This document shows, one piece after another, positions 2,846 through 13,105 of a stretch of DNA of 64,000 bases (position 1 is the first letter of the stretch; every line of letters starts with the position of its first letter). The notes below the pieces were generated by a model. The model had not been told where the DNA came from and ran no database searches. It was given only the letters and a program-made list of their open reading frames with translations. The stretch comes from Thermoanaerobaculia bacterium. GTDB taxonomy: Bacteria > Acidobacteriota > Thermoanaerobaculia > Multivoradales > UBA5704. The DNA lies in assembly GCA_038250865.1 (NCBI GenBank), contig JBBSBW010000006.1, positions 26,424 through 90,423 on the forward strand, read 5' to 3'. A program made the translations under genes and the position numbers.

Positions 2846-4075
2846 ATGAAAACGGCAACGCCAGCTACTCTCCCCTCCAACCCCTTCCGGCCGGGAGCCG
2901 GTCACATGCCACCCTACCTGGCGGGAAGAGAGTCGGAGCAGCATGAGTTCTCTCGACTCTTGGAGCAGTCGACGATCCTGACGAACCTGCTCTTGACCGG
3001 CTTGCGGGGCGTCGGTAAGACGGTGCTCCTTGAGACCTTCAAACCCATTGCCATCAAGGCAGGCTGGCTTTGGGTCGGAACCGACCTTTCCGAATCCACC
3101 ACCGTCAGCGAGGGCAGCTTGGCCACGCGGTTGCTGGCCGATCTCGCGGTGGTCACGTCGTCTTTGCCTGCCGACCTACCGGAGCTGAGGTCGATCGGCT
3201 TCGGCGGCGTTCCGTCCCACCTCGACTTCGGCGTCCTTTCCCAGATTTTTTCGGGAACTCCTGGCTTGGTTGCCGACAAACTGAAAGCCGTGCTCGAAGT
3301 CGTCTGGCGGCACGTTCAAAAGCAGGGTCGCAAGGGAGTGATCTTTGCCTATGACGAGGCACAGAATCTCTCCGACCACGCCACGAAGGAGCAGTTCCCT
3401 CTCTCCGTCATGCTTGACGTCTTTCAGTCGATTCAGCGTAAGGACGTGCCGTTCATGCTCGCCCTTACGGGCCTGCCGACACTCTTCCCCAAGCTCGTCG
3501 AAGCGCGCACCTATTCAGAACGCATGTTTCGCATCATTTTTCTCGATCGCCTGAGCCGCGCCGCGAGCCGCGAAGCGATCGAAAAGCCGCTCCAGGGTCG
3601 CTCTCTTCAGATCGGCGATTCGTCCGGCGAGACGATCGTCGAGGTTTCTGGAGGGTATCCCTACTTTCTTCAGTTTATCTGTCGAGAGTTTTTCGACGTC
3701 GTACTCCAACAGCTCAACGAAGGCCGCGAGGCGACCGTGCCCGTCGAGAGCATCCTGGGGAAGCTGGACTCCGATTTTTTCGCCGGGCGTTGGGCAAAGG
3801 CCACGGATCGACAGCGCGACCTGCTCGGCGTCGCCGCGACGCTCGAACATGCCGACTCTGAATTTACCGTTCAGGAGCTGGTGGAAGCGACCAAGGCGCG
3901 CTTGGACAAACCGTTCAGCAGTAGCCATGTCAATCAGATGCTCGCCTCGTTGTGCGAAGCAGGTCTGGTCTACAAGAATCGGCACGGGAAGTACTCTTTC
4001 GCGGTTCCTTTGCTCGGGCGTTTCATCGTCAGGCAGCAGCGCGCTCAGACATGGCGCGATCGGGAGCTGGTGTAA
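2846..4075 (+). CDS. AAA+ ATPase with winged-helix C-terminal region (archaeal-ATPase / ORC-Cdc6-like family)
   Basis: N-terminal NPFRPGAG...YLAGRESE motif, Walker A LTGLRGVGKT, Walker B-like VIFAYDEAQ, and a C-terminal helical region of about 150 aa. It is a stand-alone gene between the TPR and ABC genes. Confidence 0.65.
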   Translation: MKTATPATLPSNPFRPGAGHMPPYLAGRESEQHEFSRLLEQSTILTNLLLTGLRGVGKTVLLETFKPIAIKAGWLWVGTDLSESTTVSEGSLATRLLADLAVVTSSLPADLPELRSIGFGGVPSHLDFGVLSQIFSGTPGLVADKLKAVLEVVWRHVQKQGRKGVIFAYDEAQNLSDHATKEQFPLSVMLDVFQSIQRKDVPFMLALTGLPTLFPKLVEARTYSERMFRIIFLDRLSRAASREAIEKPLQGRSLQIGDSSGETIVEVSGGYPYFLQFICREFFDVVLQQLNEGREATVPVESILGKLDSDFFAGRWAKATDRQRDLLGVAATLEHADSEFTVQELVEATKARLDKPFSSSHVNQMLASLCEAGLVYKNRHGKYSFAVPLLGRFIVRQQRAQTWRDRELV

Positions 4076-4105: not shown

Positions 4106-6055
4106 TCAAATCGCGACCTCTTGGGCGATCGACGGCAGCCCCGGCCGCCCCCAGGGGGCCTTCTCCTGGGCCTGGTACTGAAGGCGGTAAAGGCGGTGGT
4201 AGATGCCGCGGGCGGCGAGCAGCTCCTGATGGGTGCCCTGCTCGCGTAGCTCCCCTTTATGCAAGACCAGGATCTTGTCCGCCCGCTGGATCGTCGACAA
4301 GCGGTGGGCGATCACCAGGCTGGTCCGGCCGACCAACAGCCGTTCGAGCGCCGCCTGGATCAATTGTTCCGTCTCGGTGTCGATCGACGAAGTCGCCTCG
4401 TCGAGGATCAGGACCCGCGGGTCGAACGCGAGCGCCCGGGCGAAGGCCACCAGCTGCTTCTGACCGACCGAAAGACCGGCGCCGCGCTCCTGCACCAGCG
4501 TGTCGAAGCCTTCGGGAAGGCGCTCGATGAATTCGAGGGCGTGAACCTCACGGGCGGCCCAACGCAGCTGCGCCTCGTCGATCGACGGCTCGCCAAGGCG
4601 GATATTGCCGCCGATCGAGCCGGAAAACAGGAAGACGTCCTGCAGCACCAGGGCGATGCTCCGGCGCAGCTCGGAGAGATCCCAATCGCGAACGTCGATG
4701 CCGTCGACTTTGACCGCGCCTTGCTGGACGTCGTAGAAGCGGAGCAACAGGTTGGCAAGCGTGCTCTTTCCCGCCCCGGTGTGACCGACCACCGCGACCG
4801 TCTGGCCGGGCTCGACCCGGAACGACACGTCGCGCAGCACCGGCTCTCCCGGTTTATACGCGAACGTGACCTGCGCCAGCTCGATCGCACCGCGCGCCAC
4901 CGAGCCCTTCCGGTTCGGTCCAGGCGCCTCGCTCGCGTCGCCCGGTCGGTAGGCCGTCTCCGGACTGGTGATCGCGACATCCGTGTCGATCAGCTCGAAG
5001 ATCCGCTCCGAGGCGGCCATCGCCCCTTGGAGGATGTTGTACTTCTCGGCCAGGTCGGAGAGCGGCTGGTAGAACCGCTGGGCGTACTGGAAGAACGCCA
5101 CCAGCGCGCCGACCGAGGCAAAGCCGGCGGTCACCCGGCCGCCGCCGTACCAGAGCAGCAGGCCGAGACCGAGCGTGCTGACCAGCTCGACGCCGGGAAA
5201 GAACACCGCGTAGTAATAGATCGAACGGACGTTCGCCTCGCGGTGCTCGTCGTTGATGGTCGAGAACTCGTCATAGGCCTTGGCCTCGCGGCCGAAGAGC
5301 TGGACCACCGACATTCCGGTGATGTGCTCCTGAAGGAACGAGTTGATCTTTGCGATCTTCACCCGAACCTCGCGGAAGCTGCGCTGCACTTTGGAGCGAA
5401 ACCAGAACGTCAGGACGAACAGGAGCGGCACGATGGCGAACGCGATCAGCGCCAATCGCCAATCGAGCCAGAACAGGACGCAGACGATGCCGGCGAGAAC
5501 CATGACGTCCCCGAACGCGGCGACCAGGCCGGAGGCGAACAGCTCGTTGAGCGCATCGACGTCGGTGGTCACTCGGGTGACCAGGCGGCCGACCGGATTG
5601 GCGTCGAAATAGGAGATCGGCAGGCGCTGAAGCTGGCGGAAGATCTGTCCCCGCAGGTCGCGCATGATGTACTGCCCCATCACCTGCATCACCCGGCCCT
5701 GCCAATAAGTGCAAACGAAGGCGAGCACGATCGAGATCAGGAAGATCGCAGCGGTGGCGGCGATCCCTTGGAGCCGCGCCGCACCAGGCTCGATCCCATA
5801 AAAGTGGAGCATGTCGCCCGCGGCCACCGCGGCGGGCGAGATCCCGCCGGCCGCGCCGGGAGGCCGGATGAACAGGTCGATCGCGATCGAGGTGGCGAGC
5901 GGGCCGATCAGCTGGAGCAGAGAGCCGCCGAGGATCAGCGCCAACGCGGCGGCCGTCATGCCCCGATACGGCCGGACATAGCCAAGCAGCCGGCGCATCA
6001 GCCGGGAGTCGTACGACTTTTCGATCGCCTCTTCGGCGTGCGGATCGGCGGCCAT
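4106..6055 (-). CDS. ABC transporter permease/ATP-binding fusion (MsbA-like exporter)
   Basis: N-terminal 6-TM domain (SYDSRLMRRLLGYVRPYR...), Walker A GHTGAGKST, ABC signature LSVGQKQLVAFARAL, Walker B LILDEATSSID. Confidence 0.9.
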   Translation of the reverse strand: MAADPHAEEAIEKSYDSRLMRRLLGYVRPYRGMTAAALALILGGSLLQLIGPLATSIAIDLFIRPPGAAGGISPAAVAAGDMLHFYGIEPGAARLQGIAATAAIFLISIVLAFVCTYWQGRVMQVMGQYIMRDLRGQIFRQLQRLPISYFDANPVGRLVTRVTTDVDALNELFASGLVAAFGDVMVLAGIVCVLFWLDWRLALIAFAIVPLLFVLTFWFRSKVQRSFREVRVKIAKINSFLQEHITGMSVVQLFGREAKAYDEFSTINDEHREANVRSIYYYAVFFPGVELVSTLGLGLLLWYGGGRVTAGFASVGALVAFFQYAQRFYQPLSDLAEKYNILQGAMAASERIFELIDTDVAITSPETAYRPGDASEAPGPNRKGSVARGAIELAQVTFAYKPGEPVLRDVSFRVEPGQTVAVVGHTGAGKSTLANLLLRFYDVQQGAVKVDGIDVRDWDLSELRRSIALVLQDVFLFSGSIGGNIRLGEPSIDEAQLRWAAREVHALEFIERLPEGFDTLVQERGAGLSVGQKQLVAFARALAFDPRVLILDEATSSIDTETEQLIQAALERLLVGRTSLVIAHRLSTIQRADKILVLHKGELREQGTHQELLAARGIYHRLYRLQYQAQEKAPWGRPGLPSIAQEVAI

Positions 6056-6415
6056 CGACGGGGAAAGATACTAGAGGAAAGGCCCTGGCGAATCGGGCGC
6101 CAGAGAAAATCGGCTGAGCCACGGAGGGTTTTGACTTTTCGCGTACTCTTTAAGTTTCCTACCCGCCAAGCTGGGCGAGCCCCGCCCCAACGCACGTTGG
6201 ATCACCGACTGGGCTCGGTGTAGGGGTGCGCACGGCTTCATCGAGCAGGTGTGGAATCTGCGCGGCTGGAGCGGCAGTGCCGACTTGCCTCAATCCGTGA
6301 ACCTTTCGAACTCTTTCGATGAAGAACGTGGCGGCGGTTTTGCACAGGAGGGCTGGTGGGCAGGTTCAAACCTACCAGCCCACGCAACACTCACCCGTGA
6401 AAAAAGGAGCACTCG

Positions 6416-6892
6416 ATGAACACACTCTCGACCAGCCTCACGCTCGCCGCCGCGCTCGCCTTCGCCACCACCGGATTCGCGCAGGCGCCCGCTCCGCCCA
6501 TGCACCACCCCCAGGGAACCGCGATGAAAGACTCAAAAGAGGGCGGCATGATGGCGGAGTGTCAAGCTATGAAGGCCAAGCACCACGAGATGATGGAAAA
6601 GCAGATGGCCATGGACGCCACCCTGGACAAGCTCGTCGCGGCGATGAACACCGCCGCGGGCGACAAGAAGGCCGACGCGATGGAGAAGCCGATGGCTGCG
6701 GTCCTCAACGAAATGGTCGCCCAACGCAAAGCTATGCACTCCATGATGATGGAGATGGAACCCGAAATGATGGCTCACATGATGCGCCACATGGAGATGC
6801 AAGGTGAAAACGGTGGGATGAAAGGAATGTCCGACTGCCCGATGATGAAGATGGACGCTCCGGCAGAACCGTCGAAGCCCGGCATGCATTGA
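6416..6892 (+). CDS. Secreted Met/His-rich protein (putative periplasmic Cu/metal-binding protein)
   Basis: RBS AAAAGGAG upstream, signal peptide MNTLSTSLTLAAALAFATTGFAQA, and a mature part with roughly 25% Met plus multiple His (MxxM, MMxxM, HHEMMEKQM motifs). Confidence 0.6.
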   Translation: MNTLSTSLTLAAALAFATTGFAQAPAPPMHHPQGTAMKDSKEGGMMAECQAMKAKHHEMMEKQMAMDATLDKLVAAMNTAAGDKKADAMEKPMAAVLNEMVAQRKAMHSMMMEMEPEMMAHMMRHMEMQGENGGMKGMSDCPMMKMDAPAEPSKPGMH

Positions 6893-6945
6893 GGGTTTGC
6901 CGGGCGGACGGCTAACCGCGGCTGGCGCCGCTAGGGAGTCCGCAA

Positions 6946-7064
6946 TGATGCACGATGGAGGCTGGTTCGGAATGGGTGGGATGGGTTACTCCTTGTGGAT
7001 TCCCATCCTGGTTGCGGTGGTTGTGATCCTTGCCTGGAGGTTCGGCAGGGCGCGCCCGCGCTGA
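6946..7064 (+). CDS. Small membrane protein (39 aa), not in the ORF track
   Basis: GGGAG RBS 6 nt upstream of ATG. Encodes MMHDGGWFGMGGMGYSLWIPILVAVVVILAWRFGRARPR, a Gly/Met/Trp-rich N-terminus followed by one TM helix and a basic tail. It sits immediately downstream of the Met-rich protein. Confidence 0.4.
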
Positions 7065-7401
7065 GCCGTCGCGGACTCTTGATGCACACCCGGCCCCTGC
7101 GCGGAGTCGTCGTGGTGTTTCGGTTCGTGCGGCATTTCGTTCTCCTATCCGACAGGTTTGCGAGGATCACCGGCCATTCTTGCCGAGAATTAGGAGGAGC
7201 ACGTGCGGGATGCGTGCTTCGGCCTTCGTGGGCAGGACCAGGCATCGATTCGACGAGATCATCCGCAGTCTCGATCGTCCCGCCATAGGTAGGGCTGGTC
7301 GCGACGAACCGGGGGCCGAAGGGCCGACGGGGCATCATGCGAGAATAGATTATCAGATCGAGAGCCGGGGCGCCCACGGCCCGCCCGGGGACTTATACCC
7401 T

Positions 7402-7429
7402 TTGGTCGATCTTCTGAATGGTGTAGAAT
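7402..7429 (+). promoter_or_regulatory. Candidate sigma70 promoter for pilT
   Basis: TTGGTC-16 bp-TAGAAT about 50 bp upstream of the pilT start; RBS GAAGGAG at 7463-7469. Confidence 0.3.
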
Positions 7430-7478
7430 CTGGCAGCCTTAGTCCCTTAAGTCATTGCCTCGAAGGAGTTGCGCGCAT

Positions 7479-8603
7479 ATGCCGCCGGGTTTGACCCAAC
7501 TGCTCAAGTCCATGGTCGAGCAGGGAGGCTCCGACCTCCATGTGACGACGAACTCGCCGCCCCAGATCCGGGTGGACGGCGTGCTGCGGCCGCTCAACCT
7601 GCCGCCGATGACACCGACCGAGACCAAGCAGCTCGCCTACTCGATCCTCACCGACACCCAGAAGCACCGGCTGGAAGAGAACCTGGAGATCGACTTCTCT
7701 TTCGGAATCAAGGGCTTGGCCCGTTTCCGCGCGAACGTGTTCCACCAGCGCGGCGCGATCGCCGCCGCGTTTCGCCAGATCCCGTTCGAGATCAAGACCT
7801 TTCGCGATCTCGGCCTGCCGCCGGTGGTCGAGCAGCTGTGCGAAAAGCCGCGCGGCCTTCTGCTGGTCACCGGCCCGACCGGATCGGGCAAGACGACGAC
7901 GCTCGCCTCGATGCTCGACAAGGTCAACCGTGAGCGTCACGAGCACATCGTCACCATCGAGGACCCGGTCGAGTACCTGCACAGCCACAAAAAGTGCATC
8001 GTCAACCAGCGTGAGCTGCACGCCGACACCCATAGCTTTTCCAATGCCCTGCGCTCCGCCCTGCGCCAGGATCCCGACGTCGTGCTGATCGGCGAGATGC
8101 GCGACCTCGAAACGGTCGAGGCGGCGCTGCGCATCGCCGAGACCGGCCATTTGACGTTCGCCACCCTGCACACGAACTCTGCGGCGCAGACGATCAACCG
8201 GATCATCGACATGTTCCCGGCCCACCAGCAGGGCCAGATTCGGGTGCAGCTGTCGTTCGTTCTCGAAGGCATCTTGTGCCAGTCGCTGCTGCCGAAAGCT
8301 ACGGGCAAGGGGCGGGCGATGGCGATGGAGGTGCTGGTGCCCACCGCCGCCATCAGAAACCTGATCCGTGAAGACAAGATTCATCAGATCTACGGCATGA
8401 TGCAGGCGGGCCAGGCCAAGCACGGCATGCAGACGTTCAACCAGTCCTTGGCGGCTCTCTACTTCAAGCGGCTGATCAGCCTGCAGACCGCTCTCGCCCG
8501 TTCGTCCCATGCCGACGAGCTTCAAGAGATCATCAATCGCGGCCCGGCGGCGGTTGCCCTACCCACCACGCCGACCAGGGGCGAGGCGCAGCGCACTTCG
8601 TAG
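7479..8603 (+). CDS. pilT: Type IV pilus retraction ATPase PilT
   Basis: MPPGLTQLLKSMVEQGGSDLH N-terminus, Walker A GPTGSGKTT, and PilT/PilU-family Asp/His boxes. The start is chosen at the ATG following the GAAGGAG RBS. Confidence 0.9.
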   Translation: MPPGLTQLLKSMVEQGGSDLHVTTNSPPQIRVDGVLRPLNLPPMTPTETKQLAYSILTDTQKHRLEENLEIDFSFGIKGLARFRANVFHQRGAIAAAFRQIPFEIKTFRDLGLPPVVEQLCEKPRGLLLVTGPTGSGKTTTLASMLDKVNRERHEHIVTIEDPVEYLHSHKKCIVNQRELHADTHSFSNALRSALRQDPDVVLIGEMRDLETVEAALRIAETGHLTFATLHTNSAAQTINRIIDMFPAHQQGQIRVQLSFVLEGILCQSLLPKATGKGRAMAMEVLVPTAAIRNLIREDKIHQIYGMMQAGQAKHGMQTFNQSLAALYFKRLISLQTALARSSHADELQEIINRGPAAVALPTTPTRGEAQRTS

Positions 8604-8626
8604 CGCGGAGCCCGAGGAGTCAGTCG

Positions 8627-9832
<1,206 letters not shown>

Positions 9833-9923
9833 GCCAAAGGCCGACCGAAACGCGCCCGGACGGCTGCCAGCCGCCCGGGCGCTTCGGAGACCGCCGCCGT
9901 CTCTTCGAACCCGCCAGCCACCG

Positions 9924-11708
9924 ATGCCCGCTCTCGCCCGTCAACTCCGCTGGTACATCGCGATCCGCCTGGTGGCGGTCGGCAGCGTACTGCTGCTCTT
10001 TTTCCTGCTGCAACTGGTTGACACGCGGCAGCCGGCCGAGCTTTCCGAGCTGAGCACGCCGGCAGCGACGGCGGCGGTCGTCCATCCGCCGGTCGAACCG
10101 AGCCCCAACGTCCAGCCGCCGACACCGGCCGCCGACATCGGGTTTCCTTACGGCTTCCTGTATGTCATCGCGGCTCTCACCTTCGCCGCGACGCTCATCT
10201 ACCTGGCGCTCCTGCGTCTATTGCCCGGCTACTACCAGCTTCAGGCCTACATCCAATTTTTCGGCGACCTGCTGTTGATCACCGCGCTGGTCTATCAGTT
10301 CGGGGGTATTTCGAGCCCGTTCTCGATGCTCTACCTGATCGTCATCGCGGTCGCCGCGACGCTGCTGCGGCGGCGCGCCGGCCTCGCGGTCGCCACCGCC
10401 GCCTACGTGCTCTACGCGAGCTTGCTCCTGTCGCTCCATTCCCACTCGGTGCCGCTGCCGGCTTTCGCCGGAGACGAGGCGTCGACCTGGCGCCTGGCTT
10501 ACAACCTCGCGGTTCACCTGTTCGGCTTCTATGCCGTCGCGCTCCTCACCTCGTATCTCGCGCACAACATCGCCCGCGCCGAGCTGGAGCTGGAAGCGAA
10601 GAAGGAAGACCTGGCGGACCTCCAGGTGGTCCATCGCGACGTGATCGAGTCGATCAGCAGCGGCTTGGTCACCGCCGATCTGGACGGAGTGATCAAAAGC
10701 GTCAATCGGGCGGGCACCGAAATCCTCAGGAAAGGCGAAAGCGACCTGGTCGGCGCGCCGATCTGGAGTTCGGGATTGTTCTCCGCCGCCCGCTGGACCG
10801 AGCTGGCCGATGCGAGCGGCCAGAGCGGCAGAGTTCGTTCAGAGGTCGAGCTGACCTACGGCGGCACCGCGGGCTACGTCGGTTTTTCGATCTCGCACCT
10901 GGCCGATGCGGACGGCGTGCAGCGCGGCTATATCCTAATCTTCCAGGACCTCACCCGTTGGCGGCGCCTCCAGGAGGAGATGCAGGTCAAAGACCGGATG
11001 GCCGCGGTGGGCGAGCTGGCCGCCGGTTTGGCGCACGAGATCGGCAATCCGCTCGCGGCGATCTCGGGCTCGGTGCAGATGCTGTCGGCGAACCTGCCGA
11101 CCGAGTCCTCGCAGCGCCGCCTGCTCGACATCCTGCTCAAGGAGAGCCAGCGCCTCGATCGGACGATCAAGGGCTTCCTGCGCTTCGCCCGGCCGCGCGA
11201 GCTGTCGACCTCGGCGTTCGACATCGGGCATCTTCTGTCCGAGAATTTCGAGCTGCTCAGAAACAGCGGCGAGGTCTCCGAGCGCCATGCCTTAAGCCTC
11301 GACCTCGACCCGGCGAGCGTCACGCTGATGGCCGACGCCGACCAAGTGAGCCAGATCTTCTGGAACTTGGCGAGGAACGCTTTGCGCGCCATGCCCGAAG
11401 GGGGCGACCTACGCATCTCGGGCCGGTCGGGTCCCGAGGCCTATCGGCTGCGCTTCGCCGATACCGGCCGGGGCATGTCGCCCGAGCAGCGCGCGAATCT
11501 GTTCCATCCGTTCCGATCGTTTTTCGACGGCGGCACCGGGATCGGCATGGCGATCGTCTATCGGATCGTCCAGGAGCACGGCGGTCAGGTTTCGGTCGAA
11601 AGCCGCCTGGGCGAGGGGGCGACGATTACGGTCGAGCTGCCCCTTTCGCCCCCCATGCCGCCGCGACCGGCCACCGCGGAACTCGCCATCGTGGAGGCAG
11701 AACCATGA
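9924..11708 (+). CDS. pilS: Sensor histidine kinase (PilS-like) with membrane N-terminal domain, PAS, HisKA and HATPase domains
   Basis: Multiple TM helices, H-box LAHEIGNPLAAISGS, N/G1/G2 boxes (DTGRGM, GTGIGMAIV). Its stop overlaps the pilR start (ATGA). Confidence 0.8.
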   Translation: MPALARQLRWYIAIRLVAVGSVLLLFFLLQLVDTRQPAELSELSTPAATAAVVHPPVEPSPNVQPPTPAADIGFPYGFLYVIAALTFAATLIYLALLRLLPGYYQLQAYIQFFGDLLLITALVYQFGGISSPFSMLYLIVIAVAATLLRRRAGLAVATAAYVLYASLLLSLHSHSVPLPAFAGDEASTWRLAYNLAVHLFGFYAVALLTSYLAHNIARAELELEAKKEDLADLQVVHRDVIESISSGLVTADLDGVIKSVNRAGTEILRKGESDLVGAPIWSSGLFSAARWTELADASGQSGRVRSEVELTYGGTAGYVGFSISHLADADGVQRGYILIFQDLTRWRRLQEEMQVKDRMAAVGELAAGLAHEIGNPLAAISGSVQMLSANLPTESSQRRLLDILLKESQRLDRTIKGFLRFARPRELSTSAFDIGHLLSENFELLRNSGEVSERHALSLDLDPASVTLMADADQVSQIFWNLARNALRAMPEGGDLRISGRSGPEAYRLRFADTGRGMSPEQRANLFHPFRSFFDGGTGIGMAIVYRIVQEHGGQVSVESRLGEGATITVELPLSPPMPPRPATAELAIVEAEP

Positions 11709-13105
11709 GTTCGACCAGCGCACGTCTGTTGGTGGTGGACGACGAGCCGAGCATGCTCGACATGCTCACCCTGTTGTTCGCCGACGAGGGCTACGCGGTC
11801 GAGACCGCCCGCTCGACCGAAGAGGCCCGGCGGGTGCTCGCGCAAGGCGGGCTCGACCTGGTCCTCTGCGACATCATGATGCCGGACGGCAACGGCCTCG
11901 ATCTTTTGCGCGAGATCAAGACCTCGAACCCGGACGCCCCGGTCATCATGATGACCGCCTATACCTCCACCAAGTCGGCGATCGACGCGATGAAGCTCGG
12001 CGCCTACGACTACATCTCGAAACCGTTCGACGTCGACGAACTGAAGATCATCGTCCAGAAGGCGCTGGAGCGCGCCGAGCTGGTGGACGAAAACGTCTAC
12101 CTTCGAAAAGCGCTCGAACAGAAATACACCTTCAACAACATCATCGGGCGCAGTGCGCGCATGCAGGCGATTTTCTCGCTGATCGAGCGGATCGCGCGCA
12201 CCGCGTCGACCGTGCTGATCCAAGGGGAGAGCGGCACGGGCAAAGAGCTGATCGCCCGGGCGATCCAATACGCCAGCCCGCGCGCGGCGAATCGAATTCT
12301 GGCAATCAACTGCGGCGCGCTGCCGGAAAGCCTGCTCGAAAGCGAACTGTTCGGCCACGAGCGCGGGGCGTTTACCGGCGCGGTGCGCGAGAAGAAAGGC
12401 CTGTTCCAAGAGGCCAACAGGGGCACTCTCTTCCTCGACGAAATCGGCGAGATGTCGCTCACCATGCAGGTCAAGCTTCTACGCGCGCTCCAGGAACGGA
12501 AGATCCGCAAGGTCGGCGGCAACGCCGAGGAATCGGTCGACGTGCGGGTGATCGCGGCGACCAACCAGAACCTTGAGGAGCGGATCGCCAAAGGGGATTT
12601 CCGGGAGGACTTGTTCTATCGGATCAACGTCATCCCGATCCAACTTCCGCCGCTACGCCAGCGCCGGGAAGACATTCCCCTGCTGGTCGACTTCTTCCTC
12701 CACAAGTATTGCGAGGAGATGAACCTTTCGCCGCGCCAGATTTCGATCGACGCGATGCGCATGCTCGAAGGGTACGACTGGCCGGGCAACGTGCGGGAGC
12801 TGGAAAACATGATCGAGCGCACGCTCGCGCTCGCTCACTCCGAGATCATCACGACCAAGGACATGCCGGTGCAGCTTCTCACGCACCGCAAGAGCCTCGC
12901 CGAGATCGTCACCCTCCCCGAAGAGGGCCTCGACCTCGAGGCCTACCTCGAAGACATCCGCGCCCAGCTGATGGTCCAGGCGCTCGAACGGACCAGCGGC
13001 GTCCAAACCCAGGCCGCCGAGCTGCTCGGCATGAGCTTCCGCTCGTTCCGCTACTACGCGAAGAAAGCCGGCTTGAAAGGCGGCGCCGACGCGGACGACG
13101 AGTAG
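11705..13105 (+). CDS. pilR: Sigma-54-dependent response regulator (PilR/NtrC family)
   Basis: Receiver domain (LLVVDDEPSMLDML...CDIMMPDGNG), sigma54 AAA+ domain (GESGTGKELIARAI, GAFTGA, ESELFGHE), C-terminal Fis-type HTH. The track ORF at 10958 is an upstream read-through; the real start is the ATG at 11705. Confidence 0.9.
   Translation: MSSTSARLLVVDDEPSMLDMLTLLFADEGYAVETARSTEEARRVLAQGGLDLVLCDIMMPDGNGLDLLREIKTSNPDAPVIMMTAYTSTKSAIDAMKLGAYDYISKPFDVDELKIIVQKALERAELVDENVYLRKALEQKYTFNNIIGRSARMQAIFSLIERIARTASTVLIQGESGTGKELIARAIQYASPRAANRILAINCGALPESLLESELFGHERGAFTGAVREKKGLFQEANRGTLFLDEIGEMSLTMQVKLLRALQERKIRKVGGNAEESVDVRVIAATNQNLEERIAKGDFREDLFYRINVIPIQLPPLRQRREDIPLLVDFFLHKYCEEMNLSPRQISIDAMRMLEGYDWPGNVRELENMIERTLALAHSEIITTKDMPVQLLTHRKSLAEIVTLPEEGLDLEAYLEDIRAQLMVQALERTSGVQTQAAELLGMSFRSFRYYAKKAGLKGGADADDE

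Follow-up and report, generated by a model that had tools for sequence, protein, structure and literature searches.

Two adjacent genes, referred to here as A and B, lie on the forward strand of the window, that is, the whole 64-kb stretch of DNA that was analysed. Both ORFs were recovered at the positions given in a first-pass annotation of this DNA, as was the GGGAG ribosome-binding site reported there for B, and together they form a conserved two-gene unit in Acidobacteria-type bacteria. The genes are separated by a gap of 52 nt. Coordinates of the genes and of the elements recognized in and around them are collected in Table 1.

Table 1. Features of the A-B locus, in window positions.
Feature	Position	Strand	Remarks
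Putative sigma-54 (-24/-12) type promoter	6329..6344	+	TGGCGGCGGTTTTGCA; 72 nt upstream of the ATG of A
Shine-Dalgarno site of A	6404..6409	+	AAGGAG, read from sequence; 6 nt before the ATG
Gene A	6416..6892	+	158 aa; Met/His-rich, presumably exported, predicted helical hairpin; unnamed family
Signal-peptide-like N-terminus of A	6416..6484	+	residues 1-23, ending AQA
Shine-Dalgarno site of B	6934..6938	+	GGGAG, read from sequence; 6 nt before the ATG
Gene B	6945..7064	+	39 aa; predicted single-pass membrane micro-protein; MMHDGGWFGMGGMGYSLWIPILVAVVVILAWRFGRARPR
N-tail of B	6945..6989	+	MMHDGGWFGMGGMGY
Predicted TM core of B	6990..7037	+	SLWIPILVAVVVILAW
Basic tail of B	7038..7061	+	RFGRARPR

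Protein A contains 31 Met (19.6%), eight His and exactly two Cys, and its Met fraction rises to 22% when the 23-residue signal-like N-terminus is left out. The Met richness described earlier was thus confirmed, at a figure somewhat lower than the ∼25% given, and MxxM, MM, HxxM and MxxH motifs were found. The 220 window ORFs with 100 aa or more have a median Met content of 1.2% and a second-highest value of 6.5%, so that the Met content of A, three times that of any other ORF in the window, is not due to chance. N-termini of A family members are hydrophobic, end in G/A-AQ-A/T and are followed by a Pro-rich linker. Neither a twin arginine nor a lipobox Cys was found in the N-terminus of A, and export probably proceeds by the Sec route. 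An AGGAG upstream of A was kept in the upstream alignment with relatives.

At least 372 relatives of A were obtained in a word-indexed search, all of them annotated as 'hypothetical' or with a spurious 'Skp' label, and an exhaustive profile search yielded at least 1,466 representative clusters at E ≤ 1e-3 (563 at E ≤ 1e-10). Nearly all members are stand-alone proteins of 130-180 aa; longer members were considered as domain fusions, an idea that was rejected as they hold no extra Pfam domain. The genomes carrying A are mostly MAGs of Thermoanaerobaculia, Holophagales and other Acidobacteriota. Two or more paralogues were observed per single MAG (L001/L036, L024/L034 and L006/L027), sometimes 20 kb apart on one contig, and the 64-kb window has one A only.

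Residues C49, H121, H125 and C141-P142 are invariant in the family. Exactly two Cys are present in 102 of 120 members, a CP[ML]M motif in 117 of 120, and 23 alignment columns consist for at least 80% of Met, His or Cys (121 sequences), with a conserved core reading M118-M119-x-H121-M122-M123-x-H125-M126. The window protein carries all marks of the family, namely the Cys of EC.AM and of CPMMK, the MMxHMMxH core and a predicted hairpin of ∼135 residues. Conservation in A is positional, not merely compositional.

An AlphaFold2 model of A predicts a helical hairpin made of residues 41-81 and 90-131, in which 57 residues have a pLDDT above 90. Along both predicted helices runs a 3-4-periodic, heptad-like stripe that is 59% Met/His/Cys, compared with 15% at the other helical positions. 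In helix 1, the stripe comprises M45, C49, M52, M59 and M66, then L70, L73 and M77; in helix 2, it comprises M93, then M111, M114, M118, H121, H125 and M128. We read this model as a hairpin with a leucine-zipped closed end and an open end lined by soft ligands, near which the CPMMK tail would lie.

The Pfam check proposed in the first-pass annotation for the Met-rich protein was carried out and, like the comparison with NCBIfam, gave no family match even at E ≤ 1, only sub-threshold coiled-coil noise. No PDB or Rfam match was obtained for A or B (Rfam was scanned over 5800-7700), nothing was found when the A profile was searched against PDB sequences, and Foldseek of the A model against PDB returned a best E of 1.6 (4kqt), with CnrXs only at rank 48. 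A had been likened to the Met-rich segments of CopA, PcoC and CueO; no relation to any named copper protein was detected, and this comparison was dropped. The Skp/OmpH label attached by JGI to several members was likewise rejected, PF03938 scoring 10-15 bits against a cut-off of 32.4.

B is short, and in one public annotation of this very contig it is lacking, an antisense 49-aa ORF being called instead, which might suggest a chance open frame in the GC-rich DNA downstream of A rather than a gene. Against this, position, strand and sequence of B are conserved over at least 34 genome and 25 metagenome loci, and many assemblies list it as a protein of 37-46 aa. A search for small-protein relatives, also proposed earlier, returned at least 149 proteins from public gene calls, all of 31-69 aa. 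Substitutions lean synonymous: median pN/pS against 12 relatives was 0.41 over all pairs, and comparison with the 11 more distant of these relatives gave a pS of 0.45-0.75 and a pN of 0.17-0.29. Starts are either coupled to an upstream gene or preceded by a Shine-Dalgarno-like motif 3-12 nt upstream (27 of 32 homologues). Purifying selection acts on B, the proposal that the micro-ORF is a gene was upheld, and a chance open frame, which we hold to be extremely improbable, is close to excluded. At L081 (981-1130, corresponding to window 6986-7135, - strand), the antisense 49-aa call accompanies the same A protein and B is missed, which shows how the B family escapes annotation.

An HMM built from B-like ORFs detected B in 34 of the 80 related loci and in the window, always on the strand of A and nearly always adjoining it. 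No Pfam or NCBIfam match to B was found, even at E ≤ 1. Over the family, the first 16 residues are 34% Gly, 21% Met and 10% Trp, and His occupies position 2 or 3 in 101 of 120 members. The hydropathy of B peaks at residues 16-31. K+R averages 0.1 in the first 16 residues vs 3.6 in the last 12, and a single-pass topology with the N-terminus outside and the C-terminus inside is therefore predicted. The window protein fits the unnamed family, which is marked by a length of 37-46 aa, an M(M)H-G-rich-W.GM tail, one predicted TM segment, a basic C-tail and a gene position beside A and/or YHS.

Two other readings of the B frame were considered and rejected. A start at the TTG of 6897, by which B would reach 55 aa, was discarded because homologues begin at the MMH methionine, behind the Shine-Dalgarno site. 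A SHOCT-type membrane protein, in which a C-terminal SHOCT domain presumably follows a similar Gly/Met-rich TM head, was set aside as no Pfam match was found and all 120 listed relatives have 31-69 aa and no extra domain. A second flavour of B was also observed, reading MHG..GMGMGWMNVWWIFG.VVV.GVLWLVFKSFG.R.PPGGS and ending in Pro-Pro-Gly (e.g., L057 6508-6642, L060 432-566 and L090 6001-6135); at L090, this type occurs without A or YHS. Pro-Pro-Gly is an EF-P-dependent stalling motif.

Gene content was compared over 80 A-centred genome loci, many of which come from related MAGs, so that locus counts do not represent independent events. The architectures observed were A-YHS-B (16/80), A-B (11/80), A-YHS (8/80), B-A (5/80), A alone (38/80) and contig end (2/80). 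B thus adjoins A at 32 of the 80 loci, and a YHS gene lies downstream of A at 24. The gene found between A and B in relatives encodes a YHS/TRASH domain protein (PF04945, E 3.9e-17), and in A-YHS-B loci its stop overlaps the start of B as ATGA. For B-centred metagenome loci, 21 of which had enough upstream DNA, A was directly upstream in 16 and A and/or YHS in 20. A YHS gene is absent from the whole window, where A and B are separated by the short gap only. A GC-rich hairpin, GGCGGGGCGTCTCGATxGAxxCCCCCGCC, was noticed directly after the stop of A and before YHS (L010 995-1040) and in the same place in L015, L016, L037, L047, L025 and L038; it is absent from the window and could be an attenuator or a processing site.

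Upstream of A, the divergent MsbA-like ABC exporter mentioned in the first-pass annotation was found at 4106-6055 (- strand), scoring below the MsbA equivalog cut-off. The exporter, an AAA ATPase and PilT were considered as conserved partners of A and rejected, all three being absent from 80 of 80 related loci; the exporter is therefore an accidental neighbour. A 409-aa AAA_16-type ATPase is encoded upstream of the exporter (2846-4075) and is not kept near A elsewhere; its C-terminus is weakly winged-helix-like, with a faint ArsR/SmtB match (E 0.036). A type IV pilus block occupies 7455-13105, with pilT (TIGR01420, 500 bits), pilC, a sensor histidine kinase and a sigma-54-dependent NtrC-type response regulator, in the known order pilT-pilC-pilS-pilR.

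TGGC-N7-TTGCA, the pattern of the putative promoter of A, has a single match in the 64-kb window when both strands are considered, with 0.38 expected. The form TGGCGGC-N4-TTGCA is invariant across the window, L001, L002 and L003 while the flanks diverge; L002 and L003 share only 62-63% protein identity (A upstream alignment). A looser sigma-54 motif was found upstream of A at 12 of 79 loci vs ∼3 expected, and no sigma-70-like site was found in a scan of 6000-7500. The 6329-6344 element probably functions as a promoter, judging from its sequence. RpoN-dependent transcription is expected in this organism given the sigma-54-dependent regulator of the adjacent pilus block. NtrC-type response regulators occur near A at 11 of 80 loci and histidine kinases at 14 of 80; in the window, no regulator or kinase gene lies directly next to A.

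Copper genes were searched for within 6 kb of A. P1B-type ATPases with CPC or HMA were found at 11 of 80 loci, a number reduced from the 19 obtained with the DKTGT motif alone by requiring CPC or HMA; TIGR01511, run on five of these enzymes, scored 580-600 bits in four (cut-off 397). CusA was found at five loci, CusB at four and a multicopper oxidase at four. The union of P1B-ATPase, Cus and multicopper oxidase genes covers 17 of 80 loci, or 34 of 80 with YHS counted, related MAGs being included in both figures. This copper neighbourhood is real: genes for copper P1B-ATPases, CusBA and multicopper oxidases are found next to relatives of A and B far more often than expected by chance. The order is cusB-cusA-A(-B) in L079 and L057, CopA-YHS-B in L051 and HMA-ATPase...A-YHS-B in L082. 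Although phylogenetic independence does not apply to these counts, gene order and orientation vary between loci, which argues for repeated association.

YHS domains are fused to neighbouring P1B-ATPases in L014, L042, L051, L075 and L078; one YHS domain has been proposed as a copper sensor (PMC4626032). In L108 (3828-6275), YHS, B and a CPH-motif P1B-ATPase with a His-rich N-terminus stand in one row without A, the start of B overlapping the stop of YHS; B can thus form part of a copB-like operon without A. In L082 (11048-11560), B is followed by the gene of a predicted 170-aa lipoprotein rich in Met and His, which has no Pfam match and is a candidate for another metal binder. The ATPase at L056 1713-4325 was rejected as a copper pump, being a plasma-membrane-type proton P-type ATPase (TIGR01647, 1052 bits). 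A putative proton-type enzyme also appears next to A in L008, L035, L038 and L041, where the grouping is based on DKTGT without CPC and on ORF clustering, the family model having been run on L056 only.

Over its full 64 kb, the window lacks genes for copper ATPases, Cus components, multicopper oxidases and YHS proteins, and about half of the related loci are without copper genes. Some of these carry A together with an NtrC-type (sigma-54) regulator, a hybrid kinase and small stress proteins of the CsbD, BON and Transgly_assoc types. A conserved 72-79-aa two-TM protein (…LALVYGSFTYTKKTHQTKIGPLEF…VPLWAGVGAIVVGGALL…) belonging to no Pfam family was observed beside A, YHS or B (L086 9727-9945, L087 9701-9919 and L108 3008-3247 on the - strand), accompanied by small stress proteins of these same types.

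The A-B unit is most likely an undescribed copper/silver-handling module, since it sits among copper-export genes in related genomes. The small metal-handling module proposed in the first-pass annotation finds support in comparative genomics (linkage of A and B, YHS and copper-pump neighbours); the window itself and roughly one-half of the related loci lack copper genes. In its specific form, which we consider somewhat favoured overall, A would be a helical hairpin that binds Cu(I)/Ag(I) in the periplasm and works together with B, a Met/His/Trp peptide tethered to the membrane. Both genes would form a two-gene operon, probably read from the sigma-54 promoter. Following export, A would fold in the periplasm into a long two-helix hairpin, with conserved Met, the two invariant His and an invariant Cys on the inner stripe of its open end and the second invariant Cys in the C-terminal CPMMK tail. 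This ladder of soft ligands most likely binds Cu(I) or Ag(I), and A would therefore act as a periplasmic buffer or chaperone, a role equal to that of SilE/PcoE or CusF elsewhere. B would be oriented with its Met/His/Trp/Gly N-tail in the periplasm and its basic tail on the cytoplasmic side. Its most likely task is to take up Cu(I), or pass it on, at the surface of the membrane together with A; in other genomes, B may also work with the cytoplasmic YHS/TRASH protein and a copper P1B-ATPase.

A more far-reaching version, which we think unlikely, makes A, YHS and B the three parts of an unrecognized trans-envelope Cu(I) relay. A P1B-ATPase would be supplied from the cytoplasm by the YHS/TRASH protein. 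As a dedicated subunit with a single membrane pass, B would accept Cu(I) on its Met/His/Trp tail where the metal leaves the pump on the periplasmic side. The A hairpin, possibly a multi-copper store once dimerized, would pass the metal on to CusBA or hold it. In genomes like that of the window, the A-B pair would act far from the pump, under sigma-54 control.

Several observations weigh against copper or silver handling: the 64-kb window without a copper gene, the 38 of 80 loci with A alone, the sigma-54 regulators and small stress proteins at some loci, and the lack of any sequence or fold relation to a known copper protein. A sigma-54 promoter is, moreover, unusual for copper systems and recalls zraP, and Met-rich surfaces may also bind unfolded clients or scavenge oxidants. 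A could instead be an envelope-stress protein resembling ZraP, CpxP or Spy that, under sigma-54 control, serves as a helical chaperone in the periplasm or modulates a two-component sensor. Unfolded clients would attach to the flexible Met surface of A, possibly depending on metal, with B as a small partner of the sensor in the membrane. This explanation, which we find doubtful, is consistent with the putative sigma-54-type promoter before A, the response regulators and kinases counted above, the predicted hairpin fold, the JGI label 'Skp family chaperone' on several members, and the joining of A or B with CsbD, BON, Transgly_assoc and other stress proteins in L084, L087 and L108; since ZraP itself binds zinc, it is also compatible with metal binding. 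However, hhalign of the A profile with E. coli ZraP gave a probability of 0.1%, no CpxP, LTXXQ or Metal_resist Pfam match was obtained at E ≤ 1, and OmpH and the best fold match (4kqt) gave only the values stated above. Moreover, the invariant His and Cys, the YHS gene and the copper-pump neighbours are left unexplained.

That A serves as a sacrificial methionine sink seems to us quite improbable. In that case, as for MrpX, its Met side chains would be oxidized by hypochlorite or other periplasmic oxidants and repaired by a methionine sulfoxide reductase of the periplasm. A is presumably exported and its Met content of ∼20% equals that of MrpX, a protein that is encoded with yedYZ (msrPQ), 44% charged, poorly conserved and thought to be unfolded (PMC4436054). 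A search by tblastn with E. coli queries found no MsrP or MsrQ homologue in 96 loci and the window, and Met, His and Cys of A are kept position by position in the 23 columns described above. Two defining features of such a sink are thus missing, and A is confidently predicted to fold.

Binding of copper or silver by periplasmic Met/His proteins is a known functional kind, so far represented by a few proteobacterial families only. The two families, the predicted hairpin with two invariant Cys and the A-(YHS)-B module with its conserved micro-protein appear to be undescribed, as no family model exists for either protein and literature searches for the A/B combination found no paper. Two unnamed families are defined here, one of them a 39-residue membrane protein often missed by gene callers. 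Both occur widely in Acidobacteriota, a phylum that is dominant in soil and has hardly been studied for its metal biology. The recurrence of A-YHS-B beside copper pumps offers a testable hypothesis, namely that of a small-protein partner of copper export, and an annotation handle for more than 1,000 'hypothetical' proteins.

Among the known systems close in kind to A is SilE/PcoE, a 'molecular sponge' for Ag(I)/Cu(I) that acts in the periplasm and belongs to the sil and pco plasmid systems; it is likewise small (∼140 aa), exported and equipped with helices bearing His/Met at i/i+3-4 spacing. The SilE helix motifs are MxxHxxxxxxHxxM and HxxMxxxHxxM (PMC5008109). Similar spacing in A (M118xxH121xxxH125xxM128 and H108xxM111) constitutes a functional resemblance only. 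Both proteins are encoded beside Cus/Sil-type RND pumps and P-type ATPases, in the case of A at related loci. In contrast, hhalign of the A profile (A1) with SilE, using a sequence 100% identical to annotated silE, gave a probability of 0.7%, and no Pfam/NCBIfam match was found at E ≤ 1. The Met content of A is far higher, two of its Cys are invariant, and a stable hairpin rather than disorder is predicted for it; A is also mostly confined to Acidobacteriota MAGs and has a dedicated micro-protein partner.

CusF, the periplasmic Cu(I)/Ag(I) chaperone of cusCFBA, uses His, two Met and a capping Trp as its ligand set. The B tail offers His, Met and Trp too, and A adjoins cusBA in L079 and L057; CusF is a small beta-barrel (Pfam CusF_Ec), whereas A is modelled as all-helical and B is a predicted membrane peptide, and no Pfam match was found. 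ZraP, a sigma-54-dependent periplasmic zinc-binding chaperone and modulator of ZraSR, may share with A a periplasmic, helical character (predicted for A), a sigma-54-type promoter (putative for A) and, at a subset of A loci, nearby NtrC-type two-component genes. It shows no homology to A and has no Met ladder, micro-protein partner or link to YHS, CopA or Cus. MrpX resembles A in being small, exported and ∼20% Met, but is unconserved, highly charged and found with msrPQ, whereas A is conserved and never near msrPQ in the loci searched.

Archaeal TRASH proteins of the CopM/CopT type and the YHS domains of copper ATPases have their counterpart in the stand-alone YHS/TRASH gene between A and B in relatives, a gene that the window lacks. 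To our knowledge, coupling of a YHS gene to a micro-protein gene by an ATGA overlap has had no earlier description. KdpF, sarcolipin/phospholamban and FXYD are small single-pass subunits of P-type ATPases; B, with 37-46 aa and a single predicted pass, resembles them in lying inside or beside P1B-ATPase operons, and differs in that B of the window is accompanied by A only. The ectodomain of the copper transporter Ctr1 carries an N-terminal X-X-His plus Met motifs, and the putatively exposed B tail, MMH...M..M, resembles it by comparison of features, homology not being expected.
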